Shown here: piece after piece, positions 3,809 through 47,226 of the stretch
How positions within the stretch are numbered: position 1 is the stretch's first letter
Layout: the number at the start of each line of letters is the position of its first letter
NCBI GenBank assembly: GCA_050486285.1
Contig: JBJHCZ010000003.1
Span: 23,886-87,885 of the forward strand
DNA length: 64,000 bases
Origin: Chromatiales bacterium
GTDB lineage: Bacteria; Pseudomonadota; Gammaproteobacteria; SZUA-140
Direction: 5' to 3'
Translations under genes and position numbers: made by a program
The notes under the pieces: generated by a model
The model's input: the letters and a program-made list of their open reading frames with translations, nothing else
What the model was told of the DNA's origin: nothing
The model's database searches: none

Positions 3809-3828
3809 CAATGCCAATCCATGCGTAT

Positions 3829-15538: not shown

Positions 15539-16300
15539 TCAGTTGATGTCCCGGACCGGGATCGTGATCTCGGCCCCGGCGGCGCCGTCACGGTCGGGCA
15601 GGTTGCGCTCGACCCATTCGCGGGTCCTGCGCTCGATCCACTCGGCCTCGTGCTCGGGTAGCGGCCCGCGGGCCAGCCTGGTTTCCCACTCCCACAGCGC
15701 CGAGCGCGCGCGGCGGACATAGGGGTCATCCGGGGAGGCGAGATGGATGTAGACGCGCATCGCCCCGAGCGCGCCTTCGAGATCGCCGAGCTTCTCGAGC
15801 GCGACCGCGAGGCCCCAGTAGGCATTGCCGAGCCAGGGATCGAGGTCGGTCGCGGTGTGGAAGAAGTCATGCGCGCCGCGATAATCCTCGAGGCCGAGCA
15901 GCGTATAGCCCATGTTCGCGTGCGCCTCGGGCAGGCGCGGCGAAAGCTGGAGCACCCGGTGCAGCGCGACCATCGCCTCGTCGAAGCGCTGCGCATGCAA
16001 CATCACGACGGCCTGCTGGAAACGCATGTCGATCTCGGCGAGGCGGTCATCGGCAGGCGGCTCTGCCGGCGAGGGCAGCGGCATCAGGTCGACGACCCGC
16101 GCCGGTTCCGTCGTCGCGCGCGGGCTTCCCGACATGACTGCCATGTCCATCGGCGTCACGATCCGCTGCGGCGTCAACTGCGCGGTCTGCAGCAGGGACT
16201 TCAGATCCGGGGCGGCGGCGAGCATGAACACGGTGCAGGCAATGACGCCGACCAGGCTCATCGACACCGCAGAGATCGACGACTCGTGGGAGTGCCTCAT
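15539..16300 (-). CDS. Membrane-anchored TPR-repeat protein; possible apocytochrome chaperone (CcmI/NrfG-like role is inferred)
   Basis: Start MRHSHESS overlaps the ccsA stop (ATGA). One TM helix is followed by TPR-like helices (EAHANMGYTLLGLEDYRGAHDFFHTATDLDPWLGNAYWGLAVALEKLGDLEGA). Confidence 0.6.
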   Translation of the reverse strand: MRHSHESSISAVSMSLVGVIACTVFMLAAAPDLKSLLQTAQLTPQRIVTPMDMAVMSGSPRATTEPARVVDLMPLPSPAEPPADDRLAEIDMRFQQAVVMLHAQRFDEAMVALHRVLQLSPRLPEAHANMGYTLLGLEDYRGAHDFFHTATDLDPWLGNAYWGLAVALEKLGDLEGALGAMRVYIHLASPDDPYVRRARSALWEWETRLARGPLPEHEAEWIERRTREWVERNLPDRDGAAGAEITIPVRDIN

Positions 16301-17154
16301 ATGACCCCCTTGTGCGCGGCCTCGCTGTAGAACGGTGTGCCGAAATAGGTGAAGAACGCGAACGCGAACACACCGACGATCGCCATCGCGCCGAGCCTCG
16401 GATGCAGATTGTAGGTCAGGCGGAGGTGGATCAGGCCGGCCATCATCAGCCAGTTCAGAAACGACGAGGTCTCGAGCGCGTCCCAGGCCCAGTAGCGGCC
16501 CCAGGCATCCTGCGCCCACACCGCGCCGGCGATCAGCATCAGGCTGTGGAACACCAGCGCCAGCAGCATGAAGCGCCAGGCGACCGTATCGAGGATACTG
16601 TCGGACGGCATCTGCCGCAGCAGAAAGCGGAAGCCGCGCACGCCGCGCAACAGGATGATGCCGGCCAGTCCGGTCGCGATCAGGCACAGGCCGAGAAAGA
16701 CCTTGCCGAAGCCGACATGGGCCCACAGCCAGTTATGATAATAGGTCGGCGGATAGGGGCTGGCGGCCGGGTCGAGGGTCAGCACCCAGATACCCATCAT
16801 CCACAGCACCGGCAGCACGACGATGACGGTCGGCCGGATCAGCGGTACGCGCCAGTAGGCGATCGTGTAGATCAGGCCGAGGCTGAACAGCTGGCTGATC
16901 AGCAGTTCGAACAGGTCGACGAAGGGACCGTGGCCGACGCGGAGCCAGCGTTCGGTCAGCGAGACTGCGAGCAGCAGCACCGCCGACGCCAGCAAGGCGA
17001 GGACGTAAGGTTCATGGCTGCGCGAGAAGGTCAGCGCAGAAACGCCATTGTTGGCGCGCAGCGCGCCCTGCGCGGCAAATACGGTCGCCAGCGCGTACGC
17101 GGCGAGACCGGCATACAGCCACGGCATCTCCGCGACCATCATCTCTTCGCTCAT
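16297..17154 (-). CDS. ccsA: System II cytochrome c biogenesis protein CcsA/ResC
   Basis: Polytopic membrane protein with the WGRYWAWDALETSSF WWD motif and conserved His residues. Confidence 0.85.
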   Translation of the reverse strand: MSEEMMVAEMPWLYAGLAAYALATVFAAQGALRANNGVSALTFSRSHEPYVLALLASAVLLLAVSLTERWLRVGHGPFVDLFELLISQLFSLGLIYTIAYWRVPLIRPTVIVVLPVLWMMGIWVLTLDPAASPYPPTYYHNWLWAHVGFGKVFLGLCLIATGLAGIILLRGVRGFRFLLRQMPSDSILDTVAWRFMLLALVFHSLMLIAGAVWAQDAWGRYWAWDALETSSFLNWLMMAGLIHLRLTYNLHPRLGAMAIVGVFAFAFFTYFGTPFYSEAAHKGVI

Positions 17155-18179
17155 GGTGTTTTACCTCCGAGTTGCGCGGCGGCCTTCTTGCGCGCGGCCT
17201 CCTGGGCCGCCGAGTAGACCTGGATCGCGCCGAACTTGCGCCAGAAGTGCGCCGCCAGACCGAACACCGCGATCATCGACGCAAGAAACAGCCAGTGCAG
17301 CGTCTGATCGTAGTAGATCCGGTAACCCATCCAGCCGGCCAGCCGCTCGAAGCGCAGGAAGCCGCCATCGATGCGCGCCGTCTCGCCGGGCTGTAATTCA
17401 ATGCGGTCTTCGCCGGCGCGCACGACGAGGACGCCCTCGGAGGCGCGCGGATCGAGGCGCCAGCTCGCGTCCGGATCGATGCCGGTCTCGAGTTGCAGCC
17501 AGAACCGGATCTCGTCCTCTGTGCCCTCCGGCGTCCAGCGATTCGCCTGCCGATGCTCGAACAGCGGATAGGACGGCATGTGCACCGAACCCGTCACCGG
17601 CATGCCGCCGTCGGGGATCCAGGTCAGCACCGCAGCGAAGCCCTTGTTGAACGTCGTATAGAAACGGTAGCCCTCTGCCCGCAGCGGGGTATCGTCGCCG
17701 ACGACCCTGTGTTCCCAGCCGCCGCGGCCGTCGGGCACCCTGATCTCGCTGCGCGTCGCGCCCCGCGACATCCCGACCCGGTAATCGATCGTGTACGGTC
17801 CCTGCACGAAACCGACGCGGTCGAGGTCGCCGCGATGCCAGGGTCCCGCGCGCACGTTGATGATCTCGTCGGCGTGGAAGGAGTCGCCCTCGGTCAGTTC
17901 GACGTTGGCCTCCATCATCGTCATGCGGCCGATCGCCGCGAGTACGGCGATCGCGAGCAGACCGAGGTGAAACACCAGCAGGGCGCCGCGGCGGTTGATG
18001 CGCGGATTGGTGATCACCGCCGCGAGCAGGTTGACCGCGAGCAACGTCATCGGCGCCGCCAGCACCCAGGTCGGCGTGTCGACCGGGTTGTCGTAGTTGA
18101 GCGCAGCGCCCACGCCCAGAAAGGCCATGCCGAACAGGGTCAGCCGGGTCGAGGCGAGACTGCGCAGCGCCGCGCTCAT
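17151..18179 (-). CDS. ccsB: System II cytochrome c biogenesis protein ResB/CcsB (short form)
   Basis: Start MSAALRSLASTRLTLFGMAF overlaps the multiheme cytochrome stop. N-terminal TM helices, a large periplasmic domain and a C-terminal TM. Located immediately upstream of ccsA. Confidence 0.75.
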   Translation of the reverse strand: MSAALRSLASTRLTLFGMAFLGVGAALNYDNPVDTPTWVLAAPMTLLAVNLLAAVITNPRINRRGALLVFHLGLLAIAVLAAIGRMTMMEANVELTEGDSFHADEIINVRAGPWHRGDLDRVGFVQGPYTIDYRVGMSRGATRSEIRVPDGRGGWEHRVVGDDTPLRAEGYRFYTTFNKGFAAVLTWIPDGGMPVTGSVHMPSYPLFEHRQANRWTPEGTEDEIRFWLQLETGIDPDASWRLDPRASEGVLVVRAGEDRIELQPGETARIDGGFLRFERLAGWMGYRIYYDQTLHWLFLASMIAVFGLAAHFWRKFGAIQVYSAAQEAARKKAAAQLGGKTP

Positions 18180-20905
18180 GGGATGTTGATGCAGGCCTCG
18201 TTGCTGTTCATCATCCAGTCGACGCCGACAATGTTGTTGCCCGGCGGACCGGATGATCCGCAGTGCGCATCCAGCCATTCGCCGCTGCGCGCGAAGCTCC
18301 TGACCTTGAGCGCGGCGCCGTTGTAATAAGGCGCCCGGTAGAAACGCCCGGTGCCGGACGGCGCGAAGCCCTGGTAACGCACCTGGGTACCGGGCTCCAT
18401 CTCGGACTCGAGACCGATATCATTCAGGTTCACGAGGAAGGCCTTGTTCTTCCAGCCATGCGGAATCGACACATGGCAATAGGTGCAGCGGAAGTTGTTG
18501 ACGACCGCGGCATGGCCGATGTGCAGGTTGACGCCGAGGAACTGCAGGCAACCGCCGCCGCCGACCGCGCGGCGGAAGCCGCTCGCGAGCACCTGCGGAT
18601 CCGGCGCCAGCGAAGCGCGCGCGTAGTTCTTCGGATCGTGGCAGCGGAAGCACAGGTGATTGTTGGGATCCGCCTCGTTGGCGAAGTTCGTCGTCAGGGT
18701 GCCGGTCTGGTCGCTCCAGTTACCCTTGAGGATGAAGTTCTCGTTCGAGCCGTGCGGACCCCACGGCGCGCCATGCTCGCCGCCCATCGGCACGACGGTA
18801 TCGCCCATCGTGCCCGACCCGTGGCAGTCGGAGCAGTACATCGTCTGATTACCGACCGCGCTGCTGAACGGCTGGCGCCAGACATCGGGATTTGCCCCGC
18901 GCTCATTCGGCGTGCGCCCGGTCCGGAGCATGACCGGGTGCCAGGAACGGTGGTTCCAGGTGACGAAGTCGACGCAGTTGCCCTGCGGGTCGATGTGCCC
19001 ATTGATGATCTGTGGCACACCGTTCGGGTCGGTCACCTGAAGATTGCACGCTGCGCCCTCCTCATAGGCGCCGGTCGGCGAGGAGCGCGTGAGGCCGCTG
19101 ATATGATCCGGCGGCGACTGGAACTCCATCGCCTGGTTCGTGTAATGCAGCATGTCCGGCGGCGTGCTCGGCGTCCCCGGCGGCGTCAGGCCGGTGGTAT
19201 AGCCGAGCGGCGGCGGCGTGTCATAGGCGTAGTTCGAATGGCATTTCAGGCACAGCTGATACTCGCGCGTCAGGTAAGGCGCGCTGACGGCATCGCTGCC
19301 GCCGATGCCGGGGTCGCCGCGCTTGACCTGGAAGTCGATCGGATTCGAGCCGAAGCGGGTGCTGGCATAGACCGGTTCGACGCCCCAGATACCGCGCAGC
19401 ACGCCCGAGGCAATGTTGCTCGGCGGGATACCCGGCGTATGTTCGTGCGTACCGGCCTCGCCGGGCACGGTCGGATCATCGTTGAAGCGGCGATTGCGGA
19501 TCACGCGATGCGGATTGTGGCAGTCGGTGCACTCGGCATGGCGGTTGTGCAGGCCGCCGAGACCGAGCAGTTCACGCGACTCGACGAAGTCCTGGCCGCG
19601 CCGGTCGCCCTGGGTCGCGGAGTCGCCGGTGCCGATGCTGTGGACCTCGTGGCCGGCGAGCTGGTGATCGCTCGAGATCGGCATGTGACGCGCGAGCGTC
19701 GTGAAGTCGGTCTTGATGTCCGGGACCTCGAAGGCCGGATTGGTGTTCGGGCTGATCTGCCCCTGCAGCGTCTGCGCGGTCGGCGGACCGACGGCAGGAT
19801 CGCCGTGGCAGGAGTAGCAGACATATTCGACCGCCGGCCGTCCGCCCTGGCGGAACTGGCCGCCGGTCTCGGGATCGGTCAGCAGCGGTCCGTCGGTGCC
19901 CTCGCGCAGCAGGCGGCGCGCGCCCTGCACGGTATGCGGATCGTGGCAGTTCAGGCAGGCCGCCTGCCAGACCTGGATGTTGCGCGGGAACTCGCGGATG
20001 TCGGCCGCGGAATCGGTGTAGCGCTCGATCGCGACGCCCGGATGCGCATGCGCGGAATCGACCCAGCCGTCCTTGTCATGACAGGCGAGGCAGATGATGT
20101 CGTTGCGCGGATCGAACTGCCCCTGCACCGGCGGCTGGACCTGGAAGCGGTTCGCGCGCAGGAACTTGATGTTCTCGCCCGGCACCTCCGAGCGGATATG
20201 CGGATCGTGACAGGTGATGCACTCGAGCTTCGGCCCCGACCCGTCGGCGTCGCGCTCGAGCGGCAGGAAGTCGCCCTGCGGCATCGCGACCGGCCCGCCG
20301 CGCACGCGCTCGCCGACCCAGGACACGGTGACGGGATCGAACAACTCGCCGTCGCGCGCGGCCTGCGCGCTGTCGTAGGTGAACGAGATCGGGTGATCGT
20401 TGGTCAGGTCGATGCCGAGATAGCGGGTGAAGCCGGTGTCGCGACCGAGGCCTTCCGGGATCGTGCCGCCGGGACCGGTGCCGCGCATCGGCACCGTAGT
20501 ATCGACCTGGCGGTTCAGCACGTTGACCGAACCGAGCGCGATGGTGCCGTCGTGACAGGACAGGCACAGCTTCGAGCGTCCGGTCGGCTGGCCGAGATCG
20601 GTCGCATCGATCGAGGTCGAATCGAACGGGATATAGGTCGCGCGCGACAACTGGCGGTTCCACAGCGGCGCATTGTGCTCGGGCGTCGCGCCGTGCGGCG
20701 TATGGCAGAAGGCGCAGATCTGGGACTCGCTGACTGCGGACGCGCGGCGTTCGATGCCGGCCGGCGCGATGGTCGCAGAAAAATTATGGCGGGTGTTCGA
20801 GATGTCGGAGATCCGCGGCGGACCGCCGCCGGCCCAGACGACAGCGGCCGCGCCCCACAGCAGGGCAAGGACGACCGTCGCCGATACCAGCCGCGGGTTC
20901 ATCAT
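18176..20905 (-). CDS. Undecaheme c-type cytochrome (909 aa) with an N-terminal paired-CXXCH module
   Basis: Eleven CxxCH motifs: CAFCH, CLSCH, CITCH, CLACH, CLNCH, CYSCH, CTDCH, CLKCH, CSDCH, CFRCH, CTYCH. Signal peptide present. N-terminus SNTRHNFS...ICAFCHTPH...CLSCHDG is paralogous to the 29261-30100 protein. Confidence 0.9.
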   Translation of the reverse strand: MMNPRLVSATVVLALLWGAAAVVWAGGGPPRISDISNTRHNFSATIAPAGIERRASAVSESQICAFCHTPHGATPEHNAPLWNRQLSRATYIPFDSTSIDATDLGQPTGRSKLCLSCHDGTIALGSVNVLNRQVDTTVPMRGTGPGGTIPEGLGRDTGFTRYLGIDLTNDHPISFTYDSAQAARDGELFDPVTVSWVGERVRGGPVAMPQGDFLPLERDADGSGPKLECITCHDPHIRSEVPGENIKFLRANRFQVQPPVQGQFDPRNDIICLACHDKDGWVDSAHAHPGVAIERYTDSAADIREFPRNIQVWQAACLNCHDPHTVQGARRLLREGTDGPLLTDPETGGQFRQGGRPAVEYVCYSCHGDPAVGPPTAQTLQGQISPNTNPAFEVPDIKTDFTTLARHMPISSDHQLAGHEVHSIGTGDSATQGDRRGQDFVESRELLGLGGLHNRHAECTDCHNPHRVIRNRRFNDDPTVPGEAGTHEHTPGIPPSNIASGVLRGIWGVEPVYASTRFGSNPIDFQVKRGDPGIGGSDAVSAPYLTREYQLCLKCHSNYAYDTPPPLGYTTGLTPPGTPSTPPDMLHYTNQAMEFQSPPDHISGLTRSSPTGAYEEGAACNLQVTDPNGVPQIINGHIDPQGNCVDFVTWNHRSWHPVMLRTGRTPNERGANPDVWRQPFSSAVGNQTMYCSDCHGSGTMGDTVVPMGGEHGAPWGPHGSNENFILKGNWSDQTGTLTTNFANEADPNNHLCFRCHDPKNYARASLAPDPQVLASGFRRAVGGGGCLQFLGVNLHIGHAAVVNNFRCTYCHVSIPHGWKNKAFLVNLNDIGLESEMEPGTQVRYQGFAPSGTGRFYRAPYYNGAALKVRSFARSGEWLDAHCGSSGPPGNNIVGVDWMMNSNEACINIP

Positions 20906-21975
20906 GCCTCACCCAGAAATTGAAAAATCATGATGCGACCGTTGAATGCGTCGGCGACGTAAATCCGGTCGCGGCGGTCGGTCCAGACCCCCGCCGGGAG
21001 ATAGAACTGGCCTATCCCGCTGCCGGTACCCCCGATCGGTAAAAGCAATTCTCCCCGTTCGGTGAATACTAACAGATGGTCATAATAGGATTCCACCACA
21101 TAAACCAGCCCGTTATCGTCGACCGCCACCCCCTTCGGCCGCGGCAGATCGCCGACAAACAGTCCGCGCCGGCCGAACTCGCGGATGAAGCCGCCGTCGG
21201 CGTCGAAGATCTGCACGCGCGAGTTGAGCGTATCGGTCACGTAGAGACGGTCCCCGGCGAAGGTCAGGTAGGTCGGCGCGTTGAATTCGCCCGGGGCCTC
21301 GCCGCGGTGGCCGAACACGCCGATGAACTCGCCGTCGTCACTGAAGATCTTGATGTCGTGGGCCTGCGCATCGGCGATGTAGAGTCGCCCTCGCGCAGCG
21401 TCACGCGTAATCCCGACCGGTCGCGAGAACCGGCCGTCACCGATGTAGCCGACCGGCTCGCCGTTGCGATCCAGACGCACGACGCGCCGCAGTCCGGCAT
21501 CGACGACCAGCACCTCGCCGTTGGCGCCGGGGCTGATGCTGACCGGGGTCTGAAAGCGCAGGCCGCGGCCGGCGGCCTCCCACACATGCAGCCTGCCAGC
21601 CTGCTCGTCGAACACGAACACCGCGGAACGACTGACGTCGGTGATATGGATCCGGCCGTCCTCGCCGACGAAACCGCTCTGCGGGCGCTGCAGCACGACC
21701 GGCGCGCGCTTGCCGCTGACGAAACCGACCATCCATGCCAGGACGCGACTGCCGAAGTTCGGCTGATTGGCGCGGGGGAGATTCTGCTCGCCGGTCAGTT
21801 GCCCGACCAGTCGATAGCGCGGCGGATCGGGCGGCGACGGCCAGACATGCTGCTCCGCCTGGGCTTGGTATTCGTAGGTGAGCACGCCCGGGCCGGTGCC
21901 GGCGCAGGCCGCGAGCAGCCCCGCCGCCAGCACCACCGCGACCTTCCCTGTGCCGGTTGACGAGGCTGTGCGCAT
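20902..21975 (-). CDS. NHL-repeat (six-bladed beta-propeller) lipoprotein
   Basis: Lipobox LAAC. Repeated R/G-x-x-G-xx-GEF motifs typical of NHL blades (GEAPGEFNAPTYL, GSGIGQFYLPAGV). Confidence 0.8.
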   Translation of the reverse strand: MRTASSTGTGKVAVVLAAGLLAACAGTGPGVLTYEYQAQAEQHVWPSPPDPPRYRLVGQLTGEQNLPRANQPNFGSRVLAWMVGFVSGKRAPVVLQRPQSGFVGEDGRIHITDVSRSAVFVFDEQAGRLHVWEAAGRGLRFQTPVSISPGANGEVLVVDAGLRRVVRLDRNGEPVGYIGDGRFSRPVGITRDAARGRLYIADAQAHDIKIFSDDGEFIGVFGHRGEAPGEFNAPTYLTFAGDRLYVTDTLNSRVQIFDADGGFIREFGRRGLFVGDLPRPKGVAVDDNGLVYVVESYYDHLLVFTERGELLLPIGGTGSGIGQFYLPAGVWTDRRDRIYVADAFNGRIMIFQFLGEA

Positions 21976-21979: not shown

Positions 21980-22966
21980 TCACGGCCCCCCGGGCGGCAC
22001 CGGCACCCAGGAAGCGAGCGACAGGACCTGTATCCGCCGGTTCAGGCTGTCCGCCACATACAGATTCCCTTCATCGATCCACAGACTGGTGATCCTGCTG
22101 AAGCGACCCGGCGCCGCGCCGTGGCCGCCGATCACGCCGACCAGTCGGTCACCGTCGAAGACCTTGATATCGTCGGCCATATAGTCGGCGACGAAGGCGA
22201 GGCCGTCGTTCGCGACCGCGATCGCAATCGGGAAGGTCACGGTATCGCGCTGGTAGGACTCGATCCAGTCGCCCTCGAAGCCCATGACCTGGACGCGATG
22301 CTCGCCGAAGCGGGTACCGATGTAATACCCCTTCGGCCCCTGCGCCAGCGCGGTGATGCTGGTGAACTTGCCCGGCCCGCGCCCGCGGCCGCCGAACGCG
22401 CCGACCGGCAGGCCCTCCGGGTTATACACCAGTACACCGTCGTTGTTGCCGTCGGCGATGAAGATATAGCCGGTGGTGTCGTTGACCCGCACCGACACCG
22501 GCCGGGTGATGTTGAGACGGTCCTCGATGACGCGCAGCTTGCGGCCGTTGCGATCGAAATGCAGGACACGGGCGCCGTCGGTATCGGCGATCCACACCGA
22601 CAGGTCGCGCGCGAGATAGAGGTCGGCGTCGTTGCCGCTGACCACGCCGCGCAGGTCGAGCGCGCGTTCGATACGGTCGAAGCGGGCGTCATAGCGGAAC
22701 AACTGGCGGTGGCCGACGTCGAGGATATAGACGACATGTCCGCGCGCGGCGACCGCGACCGGCTGCAGGAAGCGGACTTCGGGCGGGCCGGTGACGATGT
22801 TACCGGCGGAGGTCAGCCCGCCGTCGATGGTCTGCCACAACGCGCCGCGCGCCTCGAGCGCGGCGGCGCGCGTGCCGCTGTCGATGCTCGCGCAGGCCTG
22901 CAACAGCAGGACCGCGCAGGCAAGGCTCAGCGCAGCAAGGTGACTTCTGGAGAGACGGAGTGGCAT
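21980..22966 (-). CDS. NHL-repeat lipoprotein (paralog)
   Basis: Start MPLRLSRSHLAALSLACAVLLLQAC (lipobox). NHL-like blades (GRGPGKFTSITAL, GAAPGRFSRITSL). Overlaps the upstream triheme gene by ~40 nt. Confidence 0.75.
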   Translation of the reverse strand: MPLRLSRSHLAALSLACAVLLLQACASIDSGTRAAALEARGALWQTIDGGLTSAGNIVTGPPEVRFLQPVAVAARGHVVYILDVGHRQLFRYDARFDRIERALDLRGVVSGNDADLYLARDLSVWIADTDGARVLHFDRNGRKLRVIEDRLNITRPVSVRVNDTTGYIFIADGNNDGVLVYNPEGLPVGAFGGRGRGPGKFTSITALAQGPKGYYIGTRFGEHRVQVMGFEGDWIESYQRDTVTFPIAIAVANDGLAFVADYMADDIKVFDGDRLVGVIGGHGAAPGRFSRITSLWIDEGNLYVADSLNRRIQVLSLASWVPVPPGGP

Positions 22967-23508
22967 CTGCCGCAGTTCATCGTGGGTGCGAAGGCGACGC
23001 GACCATGGCAGAGCCCGCAATACTCGCCCTGGATGATCGCCGACATGTTGACCGGATTCGCGCCCCGCTTCGGAATGAAAGGTACCGGATGGCAGTTCGC
23101 GCAGGTCAGCCACTCGGTATGCTGGAGATGCGGGAACCTGACATTGGGCATCGATTGCGTATTCGTGAAGATGATGTCGAAATCGACAGTGAACATCTGC
23201 CGCGAGCCGTCGAGACTCTGGCGGGGATCGATCAGCCCGCGGTTCAGCGTCCTGACCCAGTCGATCAGCCCGCCGGCGTCGCGCGGGAACCGGGCCATTG
23301 CGTCATATGGATCCTGGAACACCGCGGCGGCCTCGCCGCTCGGGTCGCGGATGCCGTCATTCGCGGTCGGTACCCGCTCGCCGGAGGAAAACTGGAAATG
23401 GCCGACGTTGCGCTCCCAGGAAGGCGCCTGCTGCGCATGGGCCAGCCCGAGTCCCGACAGCAGGCATGCGAGCAGCGTGATGCCCAGGAATCGCAGCGAT
23501 ACACGCAT
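22927..23508 (-). CDS. Triheme c-type cytochrome (c7-like core with N-terminal extension)
   Basis: Signal peptide MRVSLRFLGITLLACLLSGLGLAHA. Motifs CANCH, CGLCH, CGRCH with FPHLQHTEW preceding the first heme site. Paralog of 25130-25807. Confidence 0.8.
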   Translation of the reverse strand: MRVSLRFLGITLLACLLSGLGLAHAQQAPSWERNVGHFQFSSGERVPTANDGIRDPSGEAAAVFQDPYDAMARFPRDAGGLIDWVRTLNRGLIDPRQSLDGSRQMFTVDFDIIFTNTQSMPNVRFPHLQHTEWLTCANCHPVPFIPKRGANPVNMSAIIQGEYCGLCHGRVAFAPTMNCGRCHSVSPEVTLLR

Positions 23509-23534
23509 CGGATATGTCGCGACACTCATCTCTC

Positions 23535-25076
23535 TCACCTCACGCCGACGACCTGCAGGGCCCGCTGGATGTGGCTGGTCGCGCCCTGCAGCATCAGGAT
23601 CGCCTCCGGGTAGTTCCCGCGCGCGACCTCGGCATCGACCAGGCCCCGGATCTCCTGCGCACGATCGACCGAACGCATCATCAGCGCGCGCGCCTGTTCC
23701 GTCGGCTGTCTCTGTTCGATCGCGATCGGGATCAGGCGTTCAAAACTTTCGTAGCGCGCCAGCTCGTATTCATATTCATCGCGTGGGGTCTTGAAGTCGA
23801 GTTCATACGAGATCGACTCGTCGGCAAGCATCTCGGTCAGGGCGCGGGTCAGCGTATTCTGCGTCTCGGTCAGCAGCGCGATCGCGTCGGCGAACTGGCC
23901 GCGGTCGGCAAGCCCGCGGGCGCGCGCCATCGACTGGTCGATGCGTCCGAGGTCGACCTGACGGATCCGGCTGCGATCGCGCGCGCGCATGCGCTCGACG
24001 TTGCGCGTGTAGGAGTCGCGGAAGGTGCGCGCACCTTCGTAGAACATCTCGAACTGGGCGCGCTGGGCCTCGCCCTCGATGTCGCGCGGGACATGCCGCG
24101 AGGCCTCGCTCATGATGCGCATCGATTCGTCGACGAGCAGCAGCGCGATATCGAGGTCGCCGCGACCGACGGCATCGCGGGCGTCGAGATAGTTCTGGCG
24201 CGCGGCGCGCTGCAGATCGAGGGCAGCCTGTATGCCGCTTTCGCGGATGCGGTCGGCGGCGGCGGAATTATTGATGAACATCGACGCGAATTCGATCTTC
24301 TGCAACACCTCGGTCTCGGAGATCGCGGCTGCGGGGGGTTCCGCCTCGACCACAGCGGCCGGCGTCGCCTTGGCGCGGCGCGCTGTGATCTCTGCGCGCA
24401 CCCGCGCCTCGTCGGCGGCATCGACGACGTGGATCGCGGCCCCCATGTTGCGGTGATTGCGGCACTGGTAATACAGCAGGTCCGGCGTGTCGGCGTCCGG
24501 CGTGAAGGTGACCCGCCCCTGGTAGATGAACTGGCCGCTGACGCCGGCGGTCCATGCCGCCGCGCCCCAGCCGGTCTCGTCCCTCGACAGGTAGAAGTCG
24601 TGCTGGACGCCGGTGTCGACGTTGAAGGTGTAGGTCTTGCCGCGGACGACGACCAGTTCCAGGCCCTGCTCGCCGTTGACGACGAAGCCGCGACCGTGAC
24701 CGACGCCGAAAAACGGATGGGTCGCGTCCTTCTCCGCTTCGCCGACATTGAATTCGAACGGCGAGGCGGGCGGTGGCGACGGCCGGGCCGGGCGCGGGGC
24801 GGCCGCGGGAGGCACGGACGCTGTCGGCGCTGCGGCGCCGTCGGTCGCTTCCGGCTCGGGCGAGGCCTGCTGCAGCGGGATCACCTCGACGACGCTGGCG
24901 CGCGCGGCCGGACCCTCGTCATGGTCATGCCCGTCATCCGGGCCGGCCTCGACGCTGTCCTCGACATCAACGACGCGAGCGGTCTGTGTCACATCCTCTC
25001 CCACGGTTGCGCAGGCCGACAGCAACACCGCCAGACCCGCCAACAACAGCCAGGCGCCGAAACTCCGATATGGCAT
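23535..25076 (-). CDS. Lipoprotein with a cupredoxin-like (type-1 copper) domain fused to a long alpha-helical C-terminal domain
   Basis: Lipobox LLSACA. Candidate T1Cu ligands are His in GVQHDFY, then YYQCRNHRNMG (C-x2-H-x2-M), ~46 residues apart as in plastocyanin and azurin. The C-terminal ~280 aa are charged and helical with no match I recognise. Confidence 0.6.
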   Translation of the reverse strand: MPYRSFGAWLLLAGLAVLLSACATVGEDVTQTARVVDVEDSVEAGPDDGHDHDEGPAARASVVEVIPLQQASPEPEATDGAAAPTASVPPAAAPRPARPSPPPASPFEFNVGEAEKDATHPFFGVGHGRGFVVNGEQGLELVVVRGKTYTFNVDTGVQHDFYLSRDETGWGAAAWTAGVSGQFIYQGRVTFTPDADTPDLLYYQCRNHRNMGAAIHVVDAADEARVRAEITARRAKATPAAVVEAEPPAAAISETEVLQKIEFASMFINNSAAADRIRESGIQAALDLQRAARQNYLDARDAVGRGDLDIALLLVDESMRIMSEASRHVPRDIEGEAQRAQFEMFYEGARTFRDSYTRNVERMRARDRSRIRQVDLGRIDQSMARARGLADRGQFADAIALLTETQNTLTRALTEMLADESISYELDFKTPRDEYEYELARYESFERLIPIAIEQRQPTEQARALMMRSVDRAQEIRGLVDAEVARGNYPEAILMLQGATSHIQRALQVVGVR

Positions 25077-25129
25077 GCTTTCCTCGTACTGCTACCCGCG
25101 GCCGGGGGCGCCGGCCGCGGGGCGCCGCA

Positions 25130-25807
25130 CTATCTCCATGGATTGTTCAGCGTCGCCTCGCTCAGGGGCGGTGACCAATTGGCCGGCTTCGGCTTCGAGT
25201 GACATTTCGTGCAGGTCTGCATGTTGACCGGGAAGGCCACCTTGCCATGGCAGACGCCGCACTTCTCGCCGAGCAGGATCGCGGACATGCTGATCTGGTT
25301 CGCGCCCTGCTGCGGCACGAAGATGCGCGGATGGCAGTTCGAGCAGAACAGCCATTCGGTATGCTGGCGATGCGGGAACACGACATCGGGCACCGACGCG
25401 CGCACCGGGCGAATGATGTCGAGGTCCATCACGAACGGCTCCTCGGCCGAATTGACGCGATCCCAGCGCGGGCGCAGCAACTGATTGTCGATCGCCTTGA
25501 CCCAGTCGACGCGATTGCCGAAGTTGGTCGTCGGCAGCCCCTGGAAGGCCTGCGCCGGCGGCTGCAGGCGATGGGTCGCCTCGTTGTCCGGGTCGTTGAT
25601 GCCGGACTCCGGCGGCGGCAGGTGAGGCGTCTCGCGACGGAGATTGCGGTTGAAGGTGTTGACGTCGCCGGCTTGCGCCAGCATCAGCGGCGCGCCCCGA
25701 TCCATGACGGAATCGGCGACGGCGGCCGAGCCCTGCCAGGCGAATGCGAGCAACAGCGCTGCGGCCGACAGACCGGCGGCAATCCCGTAGTTCCTGAATA
25801 TTTTCAT
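25130..25807 (-). CDS. Triheme c-type cytochrome (paralog of 22927-23508)
   Basis: Signal peptide. Motifs CSNCH, CGVCH, CTKCH with FPHRQHTEWLFCSNCHP. The C-terminal ~90 aa are conserved with the paralog. Confidence 0.8.
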   Translation of the reverse strand: MKIFRNYGIAAGLSAAALLLAFAWQGSAAVADSVMDRGAPLMLAQAGDVNTFNRNLRRETPHLPPPESGINDPDNEATHRLQPPAQAFQGLPTTNFGNRVDWVKAIDNQLLRPRWDRVNSAEEPFVMDLDIIRPVRASVPDVVFPHRQHTEWLFCSNCHPRIFVPQQGANQISMSAILLGEKCGVCHGKVAFPVNMQTCTKCHSKPKPANWSPPLSEATLNNPWR

Positions 25808-25829: not shown

Positions 25830-26288
25830 TCATTGCCGGGGTGGCTGGCCGGCGGTCGCGCCGGGGTCCAGCGGACGGTGCGCGGGCGCGACGAGGCGCT
25901 GCACGGTGCTGCCGTGGATTTGGGTCGGCGTGCCCGGGAGACCGGAATGGCACATCGCGCAGTTCTCGACCGACCAGGCGATCTCGCCGTTGTGGCAGGC
26001 GCCGCAGAACTGCCCGTCGATGATCTTCGCCATCGTGATCTTGTTGCCGCCGGCCTTGAACTCGAAGCCGAGGTCGGCGTGGCAGACCTTGCAGCGGAAG
26101 CGGATGCGGTGGAACCAGTGCGAGAACACGACCGGGCGCATTTCGGCGGCGTCGGAAAAGTTGTTGATGACGACATCGCCGTATTCCGCGTGCGCGGTGT
26201 TCGGCGCCGCGGCCCACATCCAAAGGCCGACGAGAAGCCCCGCGATCAGCGAGAAGCGGACAGGATTCCGCGCGATAATTGGTGACAT
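25830..26288 (-). CDS. Cytochrome c7-type triheme periplasmic cytochrome (PpcA-like)
   Basis: Signal peptide. VVFSHWFHRIRFRCKVCH, FCGACHNG and ENCAMCHSG match the c7 layout. GGAGAGG Shine-Dalgarno upstream. Confidence 0.85.
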   Translation of the reverse strand: MSPIIARNPVRFSLIAGLLVGLWMWAAAPNTAHAEYGDVVINNFSDAAEMRPVVFSHWFHRIRFRCKVCHADLGFEFKAGGNKITMAKIIDGQFCGACHNGEIAWSVENCAMCHSGLPGTPTQIHGSTVQRLVAPAHRPLDPGATAGQPPRQ

Positions 26289-26353: not shown

Positions 26354-28067
26354 TCAGAAACGCCGGTTTACCTGGAAATACACAAGGCTGTATTTTTCTT
26401 CGTTATCGAGGTTGATGTAACGCCAGCTCGCGCTGGTGTCCAGCAACCCGATCGCGTATGTCAGCCTGTTTTCCCACTCGGCGCGGTCGATGCCCTCATC
26501 GAGCGCCGCGTGCCAGATACGCAGATCCGAGTGGAATCGCAACTGGGCGATATTGAACAGGTCCATATGCTGGAAATTGACCTGTCCGCTAGCCGCTACT
26601 GTATCATCATCGCGGATGCCAATGAAGTCCCGGCGCATGTACTGGACGGTCAGATTGCCGGAAAGCGTGCTGCGCAGGCTCAGATTCTGGGTCCGCAGGA
26701 GCTGGACGTTCGCGAACTGCTGCTCGTCCTCCTGGTCCCCGAAACCGCGGGAGTCCGACAGCGTGACCTGGAACATCGTCGTCGACCCCTCGCTGTACAG
26801 ATCCCACGAGAAGCTGCCGGAGTGGTCGAGGCGCTGGGTGCCGAGATCGGCGTCCCCGGATTGCTGGATGCCGCTGACGGACTGGCTCAGGCTGAGCCGG
26901 AAGGTCCCCCGCCCCTGGGTCAGCCACAGGCGCTGGGCGTCGTGGCCGACGCGCAGCGTCGAGGTGAAGATGCTCTCCTCATTGAAGTCCTGGTGCTGGA
27001 CCGAACCCTGGGTGTACCAGTTCCAGGTCATTTTCGAGAAGATCTCGCGCAGGTCGGACTGATACAGCGCCCCGACCCGCTGCCGCGACGACTGCGTGCG
27101 TTCATCGTTGTCGATGACCGTGCCCTCGACATTGGCGTCGAGGCGCAGGTTCTTGGTCAGCTGGTAGAACAGGCCGCTCATCGCGCTGACGCTGGTCTGT
27201 TCGATCTGGTTACCGGCGTTCTCGGCATTGAGGCCGAATACGCGCACGCCGGCGCTGACCGACAGCGGCTGGTTCAGCGGGCGGTAGAACAGGAAGCTCG
27301 AGGCCTGGGTCAGGTCCATCAGGCTGTCGCCGAGGTTGGTGCCCCCGAGCGGCTGGGTCTGCCGCGTTTCCGAGTCGTAGTGGCTCATCATCGTGTCGAC
27401 GCGGAAGGCCCGACTGGGGTGGTAGTAGTGATCGACGTTGACGACGACGATGTCGGTCCGCAGGTCCTGGACGTTGCGCTCGATCTCCTGGTAGCTGGTC
27501 TTGCCGATCAGCGTATGGCGCGGGCGGCGGATGTTCATCTCGGCGCCGACCAGCTGGTCGAGGTAGTCCTCGCCGCCGCGCGACTCCCACTCGTTGCGGT
27601 CGTAGCGGGCCTGGAAGCGGTCGCCCTTGTCGTTGAAATAGGACTGGCGCAGCGCGAGCCGGCGGGTCGTGAACTCGCGGCCGCCGAGCGTCGTCACGGT
27701 GTTCGGCAGCGATACCGTGTCGACGCGGCTGTCGCTGGTGCGGTAGGACAGCGAAAACGGGGTCTTGCTCTGGGACAGCACGTTCAGATCGAGATCGCCG
27801 GTCAGCACCGTGGTCTCGGTCGACGTGTTCGCGCCCTTGTAGTCGGTGCTGTCCTGGGTCAGGCGCACGCCGGCGGTCAGGGTCGCGAACCAGGGCTGCC
27901 AGATGTAGCTCTGGGCATTGATCGCCGCGCGCAGCTGGTTGCTGCTGGCATCGCTGTTGGAACTGCCGGTGATCGCGCGGTAGGTATAGCCGACGCTGCC
28001 CGAAACGTCGACGAGTTCCATCGCGGCCGGCTGGGCGACCCACAGGGCTGCGAACAGCCCCGGCATC
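26354..28067 (-). CDS. Large outer-membrane beta-barrel protein (putative porin of a porin-cytochrome complex)
   Basis: Start MPGLFAALWVAQPAAMELV (signal peptide). 570 aa of alternating amphipathic beta-strand pattern, C-terminal ...VYFQVNRRF. No heme motifs. Confidence 0.65.
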
Positions 28068-28203
28068 AGGCGCCTGAGATCAGGTTTCCCCACCAGCATG
28101 AACGCACTTCCCCCGCATCATCAGCCGAGCGCCTGTCGTTGTTATAGCTGGCGAATGCCGAAACCGCGCCGGCCGGCCGCGCCCCGCAAGCAGGGGACAC
28201 GGG

Positions 28204-29175
28204 TCAGCCGTCGGTCGCCAGCACCGCCTGGTTTATTTCTATTGTCGTCTTTGCGCGCAAGTCATCGAGCAGGCGTTCCCGCGCCTGCTCCTGCAACTCG
28301 CGCGCCAGGAGGCCGCGCGCCCGCTCGGCCACCTGCTCGAAATCGTTCAGCTTCGGCGCCACCCTTTCCTCGAGGCGGAACACCGCGAAGCCCTGCAACA
28401 ACTGCACCGGCCCGGACACCTCTCCCGCCGCCAGTTCATCGACGACGTCTTGCGCCTCAGGCGCCAGCATCCCCCGGTGCAGATAGCCGAGGTCGCCGCC
28501 TTCCTCCGCGGAACCGTCAGCGGAATGCAGCCGCGCGAGCGCGGCGAAGTCATCGCCGTCGCGGATGCGCGCGATGATGCGCACGGCCTCGTCGTGGGCC
28601 GCCTGCCAGGCCTCTCCTCCTGACCAGGGCTCGACCTTCAGCAGGATCAGCGACACCCGCAGCCGTTCCGGCGTCGTGAACTTGTCCGGGTTTTCCCGGT
28701 ACCAGGCCCTGAGCTGTTCCTCGCTGATTCCGGGGATCGCCTCGACCTGCGCTTTCAGCTGCATGATGACGCTGTCGCCGAGCAGTTGCTCGCGCACGAT
28801 CGCCCGCGCCTGCCCCGGATTCGCGCTCCCGGCAATACGCCCCGCCCAGGCCTGAAGCTCGCCGTCGACCCAGTCCATATCAGGCTCGAGTCCGCGGCGC
28901 TCTCCTTCCTGGAGCAGCAGGATTCGGTCGATGATCTCGTCGGCGACCTCGCGACGGAAGGCCGCGAGCTGTTCCTTCGGAACGCTGCCGTGATAGAAGC
29001 GCTGGCGCACGCCGGCGTGAAAATTCGCCTCGAACTCTTCCACCGGCACGGCAACGCCGCCGACCGTCGCGAAGATCCGCGCGCCGTTGTGCTCCGCGCC
29101 GCCGCGCGACTCCCCGGCCGCCGCCACCGCGAGGCAGACCATCAGCAACACTGTCGTGGTCAGAAAAATCCGCAT
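28204..29175 (-). CDS. Parvulin-type peptidyl-prolyl cis-trans isomerase (SurA/PpiD-like periplasmic chaperone)
   Basis: Signal anchor MRIFLTTTVLLMVCLAVAAAG. PpiC domain FAALARLHSADGSAEEGGDLGYLHRGMLAPE. Confidence 0.8.
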   Translation of the reverse strand: MRIFLTTTVLLMVCLAVAAAGESRGGAEHNGARIFATVGGVAVPVEEFEANFHAGVRQRFYHGSVPKEQLAAFRREVADEIIDRILLLQEGERRGLEPDMDWVDGELQAWAGRIAGSANPGQARAIVREQLLGDSVIMQLKAQVEAIPGISEEQLRAWYRENPDKFTTPERLRVSLILLKVEPWSGGEAWQAAHDEAVRIIARIRDGDDFAALARLHSADGSAEEGGDLGYLHRGMLAPEAQDVVDELAAGEVSGPVQLLQGFAVFRLEERVAPKLNDFEQVAERARGLLARELQEQARERLLDDLRAKTTIEINQAVLATDG

Positions 29176-29260
29176 CTGATCGATCCAAATCTGGCCACGA
29201 GACCGGATGCCCACGCCGTCCCGAAGTTCGCGTCCCTTACCCCTGTGTCCTGCGTCCTGC

Positions 29261-30100
29261 TTATTTATTGTGACACGTCAGACAGACCGCGCTGCCGGCC
29301 GGATCGATCCGCAGGAACAACGGATTCTGGTCCACATGGGGATCGTGACAGGAAGCGCACTCGACATAGGGTTGCGGCTCGCCGACGAAGACCCCGCGGG
29401 TCGCGGTCCGTGTGTACAGCTTCATGTCGGTGCGCTCGAAATCGGAAGTCCCGCCTTCGGTGTTGGTGTTGACCCACCAGATCCGGCTCGCGCCGACGAT
29501 CTTGCTCTCGGCCTGGTTGAAGTCCGGATCGCGGCCGGGGCCGAACGGGTTCGACAGCGCATAGCCGCCGCCGGCGTACTGCACGCCGATCGGGTGATCG
29601 TCGGTGAGGTCGGTGCCGAGATTGGTAATGACATTCGGCGGGCCGAGGCGGCCGCCCACGGTCGCGGCCTGGCCGCTCCAGACGCCGGTGCGGAAGGCCC
29701 AGTTCTCGGCGCCGGAGCCCGGCTCGTTGATCAGCGCGTCCATCGCCTGGGTACCGTCGTGGCAGGACAGGCAGGCCAGCGAGACCGAGCCGATCGGCTC
29801 GATCTCGGCATCGAGCGTCGTCGAGCCGAGTTGGTCGTAGGTGGTATAGGCGGCGCCCGGGGTCAGGTTGCGGTTCCACAGCGGGACCGCGGCGGTCGCG
29901 TCGGCGCCGTGCGGGGTATGGCAGAAGACGCAGATCTCCGAGGTGCCGCTGAAGTTGCTCGCGGCGTTGACGCCGGTGCTGCCGAGGTTGTGCTTGGTGT
30001 TGAAGATGCCGGCCGACGCGGCGGACGCGGCCAGCAGCAGCACGAACGCGACGGCAATCAGCGCCCGGTAGTGCGTGAAGGTGCGGTGATCCCCTCGCAT
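29261..30100 (-). CDS. Tetraheme c-type cytochrome, paired-CXXCH family
   Basis: Signal peptide. GIFNTKHNLGS...EICVFCHTPHGA, CLSCHDG, CASCHDPH, CLTCHNK. Paralog of the N-terminal module of the 909-aa cytochrome. Confidence 0.85.
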   Translation of the reverse strand: MRGDHRTFTHYRALIAVAFVLLLAASAASAGIFNTKHNLGSTGVNAASNFSGTSEICVFCHTPHGADATAAVPLWNRNLTPGAAYTTYDQLGSTTLDAEIEPIGSVSLACLSCHDGTQAMDALINEPGSGAENWAFRTGVWSGQAATVGGRLGPPNVITNLGTDLTDDHPIGVQYAGGGYALSNPFGPGRDPDFNQAESKIVGASRIWWVNTNTEGGTSDFERTDMKLYTRTATRGVFVGEPQPYVECASCHDPHVDQNPLFLRIDPAGSAVCLTCHNK

Positions 30101-31358: not shown

Positions 31359-31442
31359 CTACAGTACTCCATGACGGGAGGATTGCGGAATATCCGGGAA
31401 AGGTACCCGATACCGGGGACCGGAGACAAGCCGGAGGGGCGG

Positions 31443-31475
31443 AAAAAGAAAGCCGGGCGCGGGGCCCGGCTTTCA
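31443..31475 (-). terminator. Rho-independent terminator downstream of the 31503-32531 OMP gene
   Basis: Minus strand reads AGCCGGGCCCCGCGCCCGGCT followed by TTCTTTTTCC. Lies 28 nt after the stop. Confidence 0.55.
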
Positions 31476-31502
31476 GTACTGCGGACGACTACCCGAGTCA
31501 GC

Positions 31503-47184: not shown

Positions 47185-47226
47185 CGTTCTTCTAGCCTCT
47201 CGTAAGCTCCGTCGGACAGTCCGACC

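Follow-up and report, generated by a model that had tools for sequence, protein, structure and literature searches.

The gene at 23535..25076 (minus strand) of the 64,000-nucleotide stretch analysed here (the window) is, by synteny and homology, the ortholog of UetF, the named cupredoxin of the Uet multiheme-cytochrome cluster. We lean towards a role for its product as a type-1 copper electron carrier that is tethered to the outer membrane and works with periplasmic triheme cytochromes. The gene starts with an ATG behind a GAGGA Shine-Dalgarno sequence and encodes 513 amino acids; GC3 is 0.85 on the minus strand across the ORF, and an overlapping plus-strand ORF (23514-25202) was therefore judged to be a shadow ORF. 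The protein family is not new. An earlier note on this DNA had read the copper site correctly and had considered the fusion of a cupredoxin to a helical domain to be undescribed; the fusion has been described before, but not analysed. The present analysis adds the assignment of the copper domain to Pfam family PF25489, the repeat structure of the helical domain, and the presence of orphan copies in Gallionellaceae.

The locus belongs to an uncultured gammaproteobacterium labelled Chromatiales at NCBI and, as judged from its gene content, is a complete uetABCDEFGHIJ cluster (uet, undecaheme electron transfer), of the kind published for 'Candidatus Tenderia electrophaga' and Tenderiales (bioRxiv 10.1101/2022.05.06.490989). 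The genes run in the published order, porin-UetA-B-C-D-E-[target]-G-H-I-J-ResB-CcsA-TPR, and the neighbouring cytochromes carry 4, 3, 3, 3 and 11 CXXCH motifs, identical to the published counts and in keeping with the earlier description of the gene as embedded among multiheme cytochromes. The target is flanked by uetE and uetG, the second and third of the triheme c7 cytochrome genes. The genes around it, all on the minus strand, are as follows.

29261..30100, minus strand: UetA ortholog, tetraheme cytochrome (4 CXXCH, Paired_CXXCH_1, position)
28204..29214, minus strand: UetB ortholog, PpiC/SurA-like peptidyl-prolyl isomerase (Rotamase and SurA_N domains)
26354..28099, minus strand: UetC ortholog, putative outer-membrane beta-barrel of 581 aa (position, size)
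25830..26288, minus strand: UetD ortholog, triheme c7-type cytochrome (3 CXXCH, TIGR04257 E 2e-19)
25130..25807, minus strand: UetE ortholog, triheme c7-type cytochrome (3 CXXCH, TIGR04257 E 1e-17)
22927..23538, minus strand: UetG ortholog, triheme c7-type cytochrome (3 CXXCH, TIGR04257 E 7e-18)
21980..22966, minus strand: UetH ortholog, NHL beta-propeller (NHL/DUF5128)
20902..21975, minus strand: UetI ortholog, NHL beta-propeller lipoprotein with lipobox LLAAC (NHL E 1e-20, N-terminus)
18176..20905, minus strand: UetJ ortholog, undecaheme cytochrome of 909 aa (11 CXXCH, Paired_CXXCH_1)
16297..18278, minus strand: ResB/CcsB and CcsA (System II cytochrome c maturation), downstream of uetJ (position)

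The UetC ortholog has no significant Pfam match; its position and size are kept in all loci examined, and UetC has been predicted to have 28 strands (bioRxiv 10.1101/2022.05.06.490989). The longest-ORF start of UetG overlaps the UetF stop by 4 nt. When UetH is started at Met50 of its longest ORF it has a lipobox, LLQAC, in agreement with a 328-aa gene call (locus L001). ResB and Cytochrom_C_asm genes occupy the same position in related loci (L002, L004, L006 and L087), and ccsAB is counted in the published uet module (bioRxiv 10.1101/2022.05.06.490989). An ACIII cluster lies about 21 kb away within the window; the distribution of uet has been linked with those of cbb3 and ACIII (bioRxiv 10.1101/2022.05.06.490989).

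The orthology to UetF rests on synteny and on homology to the Tenderiales copies. The target is about 37-40% identical to Tenderia copies; a protein from a Ca. Tenderia sp. MAG (P0078) is 37% identical over residues 7-513 and has identical synteny. The same gene order surrounds homologs of 35-45% identity, including that of the Ca. Tenderia sp. MAG, and triheme ORFs flank the uetF homolog on both sides in 57 of the 61 genome loci that could be evaluated. ALP54627.1 was named 'Cupredoxin UetF' of 'Candidatus Tenderia electrophaga', and described as 'much larger' than cupredoxins with a single domain (Eddie et al. 2022, bioRxiv 10.1101/2022.05.06.490989 / mSphere 7:e0022322). From its position and from consecutive locus tags and accession numbers we infer that UetF is Tel_16525, which sits between the triheme genes Tel_16520 and Tel_16530, was annotated as a TPR-domain protein, and was reported to be co-transcribed with very highly expressed triheme cytochromes, with peptides detected (Eddie et al. 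2017, PMC5371394). Coverage of UetF in published work amounts to two sentences.

The protein can be divided into an N-terminal anchor and tether, a cupredoxin domain, and a helical C-terminal domain, with the following features.

25011..25076, minus strand: signal peptide and lipobox, residues 1-22 (read in the sequence)
24762..25010, minus strand: disordered Pro/Ala/Val/Asp-rich tether, residues 23-105, about 83 aa (model and alignment)
24420..24761, minus strand: predicted cupredoxin (type-1 copper) domain, residues 106-219, Pfam PF25489 (model, Foldseek, Pfam)
24717..24731, minus strand: conserved K116-D-x-x-H120 motif in the loop between the first two strands (alignment)
24600..24602, minus strand: codon of His159, predicted N-terminal copper ligand in GVQHDFY, residues 156-162 (invariant, alignments)
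24444..24464, minus strand: predicted ligand loop Cys205-x2-His208-x2-Met211 (invariant, alignments)
24318..24419, minus strand: connecting helix, residues 220-236, and short disordered linker, residues 237-253 (model)
23538..24317, minus strand: C-terminal helical domain, residues 254-513, with three related three-helix units (model, hhalign)

The protein is probably exported, lipid-modified at Cys22, and anchored in the inner leaflet of the outer membrane. The lipobox LLSAC occupies residues 18-22, with L-S-A-C22 fitting [LVI][ASTVI][GAS]C, and 87 of 96 full-length family members have one, which upholds the earlier identification of the protein as a lipoprotein. The +2 residue is Ala in the target and A, G, S, V or L across the family, never Asp; sorting to the outer membrane is deduced from the +2 rule of E. 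coli, a rule that does not hold everywhere. The target has only two cysteines, C22 (the lipid anchor) and C205. Residues 23-89 of the tether have pLDDT below 50 in the AF2 model and its alignment columns are mostly gaps and unconserved; the distance from the lipobox Cys to the copper domain has a median of 97 aa (range 74-159) across the family. UetH and UetI, encoded alongside UetF, also carry lipoboxes.

Residues 106-219 are modelled as a single cupredoxin domain of type-1 copper style, and are predicted to bind copper. They form a beta-sandwich of eight strands with pLDDT mostly above 90 (AF2), and all 50 of the 50 matches listed in a Foldseek comparison with the PDB have the cupredoxin fold, with rusticyanin the best (probability 1.00), and CueO and other multicopper oxidases, plastocyanins and coagulation factor VIII lower down; the structure prediction that the earlier note had proposed as a check for a Greek-key beta-sandwich thus came out in favour of its reading. 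PF25489 is matched at 29.8 bits (gathering threshold 27) over residues 133-219. The ligand set that had been recognised from the sequence – a His followed 46 residues later by C-x2-H-x2-M – is confirmed, with His159 46 residues from Cys205 and YYQCRNHRNMG spanning residues 202-212. H159, C205, H208 and M211 are invariant among 42 homologs with identity down to 31%, far beyond chance, and a column-based count finds the H-C-H-M set kept in 193 of 225 domain instances (86%) of the wider family. The ligand positions are also canonical and fit the modelled strands, the first His lying after strand 4, the Cys ending strand 7, and the second His and the Met preceding strand 8. The K116-D-x-x-H120 motif is likewise invariant in the 42 homologs, and the K/H pair is present in 137 of the approximately 170 wider-family instances that have residues at those positions. 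One wider-family member also matches the plastocyanin/azurin model PF00127.

With rusticyanin and amicyanin sequences that were checked and found to match 1CUR_A and 1AAC_A exactly, hhalign aligned His159 with rusticyanin H85 and amicyanin H53, and Cys205, His208 and Met211 with C138, H143 and M148 of rusticyanin and C92, H95 and M98 of amicyanin. The statistics are weak (E 0.013 and probability 3% for rusticyanin; E 5e-4 and 32% for amicyanin), and no cupredoxin was found among PDB sequences by a whole-protein search or by a profile/HMM search with the copper domain; the assignment therefore rests on fold and motif. The best match in the PDB sequence search, 8a14, is an expression-tag/TEV-site artefact (ENLYFQS...HMTMG). 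A multicopper oxidase was rejected as a reading, the protein having a single copper domain and nine His in total, with its sole HxH (H50-D-H52) in the unconserved disordered tether.

The C-terminal domain is confidently modelled over residues 254-509, with pLDDT mostly above 90 in the full-length model and 86 in a separate model; the linker falls below 50 at residues 240-247, and pTM values of 0.39 and 0.37 leave the relative arrangement of the domains uncertain. The earlier description of about 280 charged, Ala/Arg/Glu-rich helical residues agrees with the composition of the last 274 residues (14.6% Ala, 12.8% Arg and 9.9% Glu; 30% charged; predicted helical), the domain itself being about 260 aa. 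The domain contains an internal repeat, with units 2 and 3 aligning at 91% probability (E 1e-6, hhalign). The best-conserved segment, TPxxEYEYELARYxSYExLxPxAIEQxxP, spans residues 430-458, and E434, E438, P450, A452 and P458 are invariant in the 42 homologs.

This domain has no convincing known relative by Pfam, PDB profile or Foldseek searches, as had been noted for the helices at first reading. A profile search of the PDB gave only designed TPR/helical proteins at E of at least 0.004 and YfdX at E=1.4, none informative, and Foldseek against the PDB gave only generic helical bundles (alpha-catenin, EzrA, designed repeats) at E of at least 0.4. A stand-alone search with the domain, which was word-index based and could miss very distant standalone relatives, found only UetF-type proteins, together with short matches on contigs of about 1 kb that are probably fragments. 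The similarity to YfdX (PF10938) is borderline: the target scores 14.4 bits against a gathering threshold of 26.6, and matches occur in 15 of 23 homologs of the target, a few of them at 26.3-27.0 bits and mostly over a 40-residue hairpin. The TPR annotation of 2017 was rejected, with TPR_14 scoring 14.8-16.2 bits against a gathering threshold of 23.5 and the model showing three-helix units instead.

About half of the protein consists of the helical domain, which is conserved (EYEYE...PxAIEQxxP) and was found only in UetF-type proteins. It is the basis for a different view of UetF as mainly a structural scaffold, in which this domain would line up the three triheme cytochromes with the NHL propellers to form a bridge in the periplasm, while the cupredoxin would be accessory or one of several relays. 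A scaffold role was proposed for Tel_16525 in 2017 (PMC5371394), and UetF, UetH and UetI are all lipoproteins and encoded together. We nonetheless regard it as unlikely, if worth weighing: the strictest conservation is in the copper domain (mean column identity of 67%, compared with 52% for the helical domain) and includes the four invariant ligands, the TPR models fall below threshold, and orphan two-domain copies in Gallionellaceae are without neighbouring cytochromes.

In the periplasmic protein EfeO, a cupredoxin at the N-terminus precedes a helical domain (M75/imelysin) of about 250 aa. The overall architecture of UetF resembles this, the invariant Glu434 and Glu438 lie one helical turn apart in an acidic/aromatic segment, and the family occurs in iron oxidisers (Gallionellaceae), all of which would suit an EfeO-like periplasmic ferroxidase or iron binder whose cupredoxin oxidises Fe(II) and whose acidic helices (EEYEYE) bind Fe(III). 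This is a poor candidate, as no Peptidase_M75/imelysin or EfeO-model match was found at E<=0.1 for the target or E<=1 for 23 members, and no imelysin-like match in the fold search; the ligands are a classic electron-transfer His/Cys/His/Met set in a single domain, and the gene lies among electron carriers rather than EfeU/EfeB-type transport genes. Membership of the EfeO/imelysin family as such was rejected, with no C-terminal M75/imelysin domain seen by Pfam or fold search. The Pfam and Foldseek searches showed no sequence or fold similarity between the helical domains of EfeO and the target, and the contexts differ, EfeUOB iron uptake in one case and a multiheme conduit in the other.

Still less probable is a copper trafficking or homeostasis protein (like CopC, PcoC or PCuAC) that would deliver copper to oxidases. 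UetF is predicted to be a periplasmic, membrane-tethered, single-copper protein, and some wider PF25489 members co-occur with MopE-type copper-binding motifs; but its ligands and loop are those of redox cupredoxins and not of trafficking sites, which are Met-rich for Cu(I) or His-rich for Cu(II), Pfam and NCBIfam domain searches found no copper enzyme or copper efflux genes in the cluster, and the gene is co-transcribed with triheme cytochromes (PMC5371394). That the fold is a metal-free, degenerate domain and the protein non-redox is hardly credible, even though sequence searches give no link to classical copper-protein Pfam models, because ligands invariant in 42 homologs and kept in 86% of 225 wider-family domains are unexpected for a degenerate site.

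For the electron-carrier role that we prefer, UetF would be anchored in the inner leaflet of the outer membrane beside the NHL-propeller lipoproteins UetH and UetI and the UetC barrel, with its flexible tether of about 83 residues carrying the single cupredoxin domain. One type-1 (blue) copper is predicted to be bound through His159, Cys205, His208 and Met211, and would switch between its Cu(II) and Cu(I) states, relaying single electrons in the periplasm. Electrons would most likely come from the triheme c7-type UetD, UetE and UetG, fed from outside by UetA and UetJ through UetC, and may pass onward to inner-membrane acceptors such as a cbb3 oxidase or ACIII/bc1, directly or via soluble cytochromes. 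The three-unit helical domain most likely docks or spaces redox partners, and UetF would be a neutral-pH counterpart of rusticyanin.

Gallionellaceae carry soluble two-domain copies as orphans, outside any uet cluster and far from cytochrome genes, and a UetF-type protein therefore need not be specific to Uet partners. A more speculative version, 'copper on a leash', which we offer tentatively and think doubtful, would have a blue-copper domain, held to the outer membrane by a tether of approximately 75-160 residues, moving back and forth across the periplasm to link the Uet complex of porin and cytochromes with ACIII or oxidases of the inner membrane. The triple helical repeat would then be an unrecognised docking module for c7-type cytochromes, and the Gallionellaceae orphans would point to the carrier as a general, so far unrecognised electron shuttle in the periplasm of neutrophilic iron oxidisers.

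Copper sites of this type typically have potentials near +300 mV. With a potential in this range, UetF could be the branch point for electrons drawn from minerals or electrodes, sending some to the oxidase and some into reverse electron flow; at low pH, rusticyanin plays this part. The Uet cluster counts among the few candidate routes by which electrons may be taken up from outside the cell, from minerals or electrodes; it occurs in Tenderiales that oxidise cathodes and in certain Gallionella and Leptothrix, and its components are still uncharacterised. Our results refine a known, named component rather than discover a new system, and they make concrete predictions: a His159/Cys205/His208/Met211 site with an amicyanin-type loop, a lipid anchor with a long tether, a family-specific helical domain, and soluble and single-domain relatives in iron oxidisers.

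Among known systems, Tenderia UetF is alike in its slot, which follows the second of the triheme cytochrome genes and precedes the third in a cluster that is otherwise identical, in size class, in cupredoxin annotation, and in a helical C-terminus with weak TPR matches. The target differs in lineage, coming from an NCBI 'Chromatiales' MAG of about 66% GC, and its analysis supplies the ligand set, lipobox, tether and domains that the Tenderia UetF papers are without. The copper domain also shares with the Pfam 'At5g54830-like domain' (PF25489) a score above the gathering threshold. That family is large, with 4788 cluster representatives (E<=1e-3), and for the most part it conserves the H-C-H-M set and the N-terminal K...H. 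Its other members either stand alone, at about 150 aa, or are giant proteins of the cell surface that carry the domain in 2-5 or more copies; the giant proteins add MopE, SprB, PKD or T9SS modules, and the UetF helical domain is absent from the other members examined. YfdX (PDB 6UXT) is also a periplasmic helical family, and the 40-residue hairpin of unit 2 matches positions 105-144 of its profile; family scores are at or near threshold at best, with that of the target well below and no Foldseek match, and UetF, unlike YfdX, has three YfdX-hairpin-like units fused to a cupredoxin.

Amicyanin (Paracoccus denitrificans; PDB 1AAC) has a C-x2-H-x2-M loop identical to that of the target and its four ligands align, if weakly; it is, unlike the target, a 105-aa soluble partner of methylamine dehydrogenase. 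Rusticyanin is a periplasmic blue-copper relay of an iron oxidiser, passing electrons from an outer-membrane cytochrome to inner-membrane oxidase and bc1 branches. The protein from Acidithiobacillus ferrooxidans (PDB 1RCY, 1CUR) is the best structural match to the target copper domain and its His/Cys/His/Met ligands align with those of the target, although it is a soluble, single-domain, 155-aa protein of an acidophile with a longer C-x4-H-x4-M loop, is approximately 18% identical to the target, and lacks a lipid anchor, tether and helical domain. The rusticyanin part of the analogy drawn earlier with rusticyanin/Cyc2 systems thus stands on the fold match, and the Cyc2 part does not, as Cyc2 is a fused cytochrome-porin whereas the Uet conduit combines the porin UetC with separate multiheme cytochromes.

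The protein encoded at 23535-25076 lies in a gene cluster whose members are all on one strand and tightly spaced. In the direction of transcription (minus, from 32.5 kb to 16 kb), two porins come first, followed by a tetraheme cytochrome, a PpiC/SurA-like isomerase and a protein of 581 aa without a Pfam match. Next are two triheme c7-type cytochromes, the protein studied here, and another triheme cytochrome, with a 4-nt overlap between the start of its gene and the stop of the gene studied here. Two NHL propellers and a cytochrome of 909 aa carrying 11 CXXCH motifs follow, and then ResB, CcsA and a TPR protein. The arrangement is that of the uetABCDEFGHIJ ('undecaheme electron transfer') cluster published for 'Candidatus Tenderia electrophaga' and the Tenderiales, the sixth gene of which encodes 'Cupredoxin UetF' (ALP54627.1; bioRxiv 10.1101/2022.05.06.490989). 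Several MAGs, a Ca. Tenderia sp. genome among them, have homologs with 35-45% identity set in this gene order. At 57 of 61 evaluable genome loci, ORFs with exactly three CXXCH motifs are present on both flanks of the uetF gene. Later reports describe uet clusters in Gallionella and Leptothrix.

Judged by its position and by the consecutive locus numbers, UetF is Tel_16525, annotated as a TPR-domain protein and sitting between triheme cytochromes Tel_16520 and Tel_16530. Co-transcription and expression have been shown by others in Tenderia, where a 2017 metatranscriptome study found Tel_16525 co-transcribed with these very highly expressed cytochromes and its peptides were detected (PMC5371394). 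A literature search found no further paper mentioning UetF. The earlier note took the fusion of a cupredoxin lipoprotein to a helical domain to be undescribed; its structural reading holds and has gained much support, but the claim of novelty falls, as this is a further ortholog of UetF, which is named and published, though biochemically uncharacterised, and belongs to a known candidate system for electron uptake.

Features of the UetF ortholog (residues refer to its protein)
23535-25076, minus strand: ORF of 513 aa with an ATG start and an upstream GAGGA Shine-Dalgarno sequence
residues 18-22, minus strand: lipobox LLSAC, seen in the sequence
residues 156-162, minus strand: GVQHDFY, seen in the sequence
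residues 202-212, minus strand: YYQCRNHRNMG, seen in the sequence

The codon-position GC pattern (GC3 of 0.85 in a genome of ~66% GC) fits a real gene, and the overlapping plus-strand ORF is therefore a shadow. The lipobox, both ligand motifs, the 46-residue spacing of His159 and Cys205, and the Ala/Arg/Glu-rich C-terminus were all located as first noted; the final 274 residues are 14.6% Ala, 12.8% Arg and 9.9% Glu, with 30% charged. There are only two cysteines, Cys22 (the lipid anchor) and Cys205. Of 96 full-length family members, 87 carry a lipobox, and position +2 holds Ala, Gly, Ser, Val or Leu and never Asp, which under the E. coli sorting rule implies that UetF is probably anchored in the outer membrane. 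The tether from Cys22 to the copper domain is unconserved, of low complexity and predicted to be disordered, with a median length across the family of 97 residues (range 74-159).

UetI also has a lipobox, as does UetH when started at Met50. The longest UetH ORF (21980-23113, minus strand) overlaps uetG by 187 nt, while the Met50 start (22966) gives a lipoprotein signal peptide ending LLLQAC and matches an independent gene call; UetH would therefore be periplasmic and lipid-anchored rather than cytoplasmic, the location predicted by PSORTb for the Tenderia protein (bioRxiv 10.1101/2022.05.06.490989). Between rpsI and uetA there are two tandem Porin_4-type porin genes (30246-32531, minus strand). 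Every uet locus examined (L002, L004, L006 and L087 in other genomes) has one or two such porins at this place, and they are not named among the cluster members.

A search of 5.8 billion proteins yielded 105 homologous clusters of ~500 aa, nearly all unnamed and metagenomic. Across an alignment of 42 of these, with identity down to 31%, His159, Cys205, His208 and Met211 are invariant, as are Asp160, Phe161, Tyr162, Asn207, Gly212 and an N-terminal Lys116/His120 pair. An AlphaFold2 model, built from the homolog alignment, predicts that residues 23-89 are disordered and that a beta-sandwich of eight strands lies between positions 108 and 218. A connecting helix (220-236) and a helical domain (254-509) follow, with pLDDT mostly >90 in the sandwich and the helical domain. 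The best 50 Foldseek matches of the model in the PDB all have the cupredoxin fold, with rusticyanin first (prob 1.00), followed by multicopper-oxidase domains such as CueO, plastocyanins, and coagulation factor VIII. PDB searches by sequence methods alone, with the whole protein and with the copper-domain profile, did not reach solved cupredoxins. When the profile was aligned to the rusticyanin and amicyanin sequences (identical to 1CUR_A and 1AAC_A), the four invariant residues fell on experimentally known ligands, H85/C138/H143/M148 and H53/C92/H95/M98 respectively, in statistically weak alignments (E 0.013 and 5e-4); the C-x2-H-x2-M loop of amicyanin equals that of UetF in length. A degenerate, metal-free fold is less likely than the predicted type-1 copper site. 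The Lys116/His120 pair belongs to a K-D-x-x-H(-P) motif (24717-24731, minus strand) in the loop joining the first two strands. It lies outside the four canonical ligands and is conserved across most of PF25489; it could be a second-sphere residue, a fifth ligand, a second site or a docking element.

The helical domain is predicted to comprise three three-helix units, which are mutually related by hhalign (unit 2 vs unit 3, prob 91%, E 1e-6; unit 1 vs unit 2, E 3e-4) and have in common an 'A..A..G.Y..A...L..A' hairpin. In 15 of 23 members this hairpin has a borderline match to Pfam YfdX (best 26-27 bits, cutoff 26.6), and the query scores 14.4 bits. TPR models score below threshold. The domain has no match in the PDB by sequence or by fold, and its profile retrieved UetF-type proteins only. 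Its most conserved segment, TPxxEYEYELARYxSYExLxPxAIEQxxP (residues 430-458), includes Glu434 and Glu438, invariant among the 42 homologs. An EfeO-like ferroxidase or iron-binding protein is less likely, as neither Pfam nor the fold search found imelysin similarity.

The copper domain is a widespread module, matching PF25489 ('At5g54830-like domain') above threshold at residues 133-219. When 1.84 billion cluster representatives were searched exhaustively with an HMM, 4788 proteins matched at E<=1e-3, of which 112 reached E<=1e-30. They form three groups: standalone secreted proteins (~130-250 aa), UetF-like proteins, and giant surface proteins that carry 2-5+ copies. The H-C-H-M set is kept at aligned columns in 193 of 225 domain instances, and the K...H motif in most; one member of the wider family also matches the classical plastocyanin/azurin model PF00127. 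The giants pair the domain with MopE-type copper motifs, SprB, PKD and CHRD repeats, and T9SS tails. Five of them (P0106, P0107, P0141, P0158 and P0184; 950-2900 aa, 2-5+ H-C-H-M copies) look like multi-copper cell-surface proteins, with partner modules that also include CEMIP beta-helix/G8 domains and T9SS sorting tails.

Variants in Gallionellaceae and Nitrosomonadales MAGs
L088:8001-9323: two-domain ~440-aa protein P0257; related proteins are P0256, P0258, P0260 and P0264, and loci L037, L052, L057 and L058
L078:7824-8405, plus strand: copper-domain-only protein, also at L079-L083, with 51-57% identity to residues ~100-230

The two-domain variants, in both groups, have an ordinary signal peptide and neither lipobox nor tether. 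In the one example examined, the P0257 gene stands alone among unrelated housekeeping genes (suf, AFG1, LpxR); the C..H..M pattern does not fit P0257, the ligand loop of which may be a variant. Three two-domain copies, on three contigs, occur in Gallionellaceae MAG BIN13. In some Gallionella MAGs the copper domain stands by itself, as a secreted protein of ~165-190 aa; the L078 ORF retains all four ligands as well as the KDxxHP motif, and its neighbours are neither uet nor cytochrome genes. The 2017 proposal that UetF is primarily a scaffold (PMC5371394) is less likely, given the stricter conservation of the copper domain and the existence of such orphan copies.

Other electron-transfer and maturation genes in the window
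382-5126, minus strand: System I cytochrome c maturation (CcmF, CcmE, CcmB, CcmA-like ABC ATPase)
16297-18278, minus strand: System II (ResB/CcsB, CcsA), directly downstream of uetJ
46117-53685, minus strand: alternative complex III (ACIII)-type cluster, ~21 kb from uetF

Two different cytochrome c maturation systems, I and II, are present in one 64-kb window. As in Tenderia, the uet cluster adjoins the Ccm system and bat/MoxR genes; the bat-like operon (MoxR-type AAA ATPase, VWA, BatD; 7780-14466, plus strand) is opposite in strand to uet and matches the uet-ccsAB-nrfG-bat arrangement reported as conserved in Tenderiales (bioRxiv 10.1101/2022.05.06.490989). The ACIII-type cluster encodes a pentaheme cytochrome (5 CXXCH), molybdopterin-like, 4Fe-4S and NrfD-like membrane subunits, two small subunits (one monoheme) and another membrane protein. 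At the quinone level it could plausibly be a partner for the Uet pathway, a role discussed for ACIII in the Tenderiales paper (bioRxiv 10.1101/2022.05.06.490989).

This analysis shows that the protein is a UetF ortholog, and it shows the fold, the conserved ligands, the lipobox, the tether and the helical repeats. Its refinements of anatomy (anchor and tether, spread of the copper module, helical units, variants) are useful to specialists but incremental. We infer that UetF would bind copper and act as a type-1 one-electron carrier, presumably sorted to the outer membrane and held at its periplasmic face by a flexible leash; a role in copper trafficking is less likely. The carrier would exchange electrons with its putative partners, the triheme cytochromes transcribed along with it, and pass them on, in the presumed direction of flow, toward inner-membrane acceptors (cbb3 oxidase, ACIII/bc1), with the helical repeats serving as a docking or spacer module. 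For this proposed relay role the functional analogue would be rusticyanin in Acidithiobacillus.
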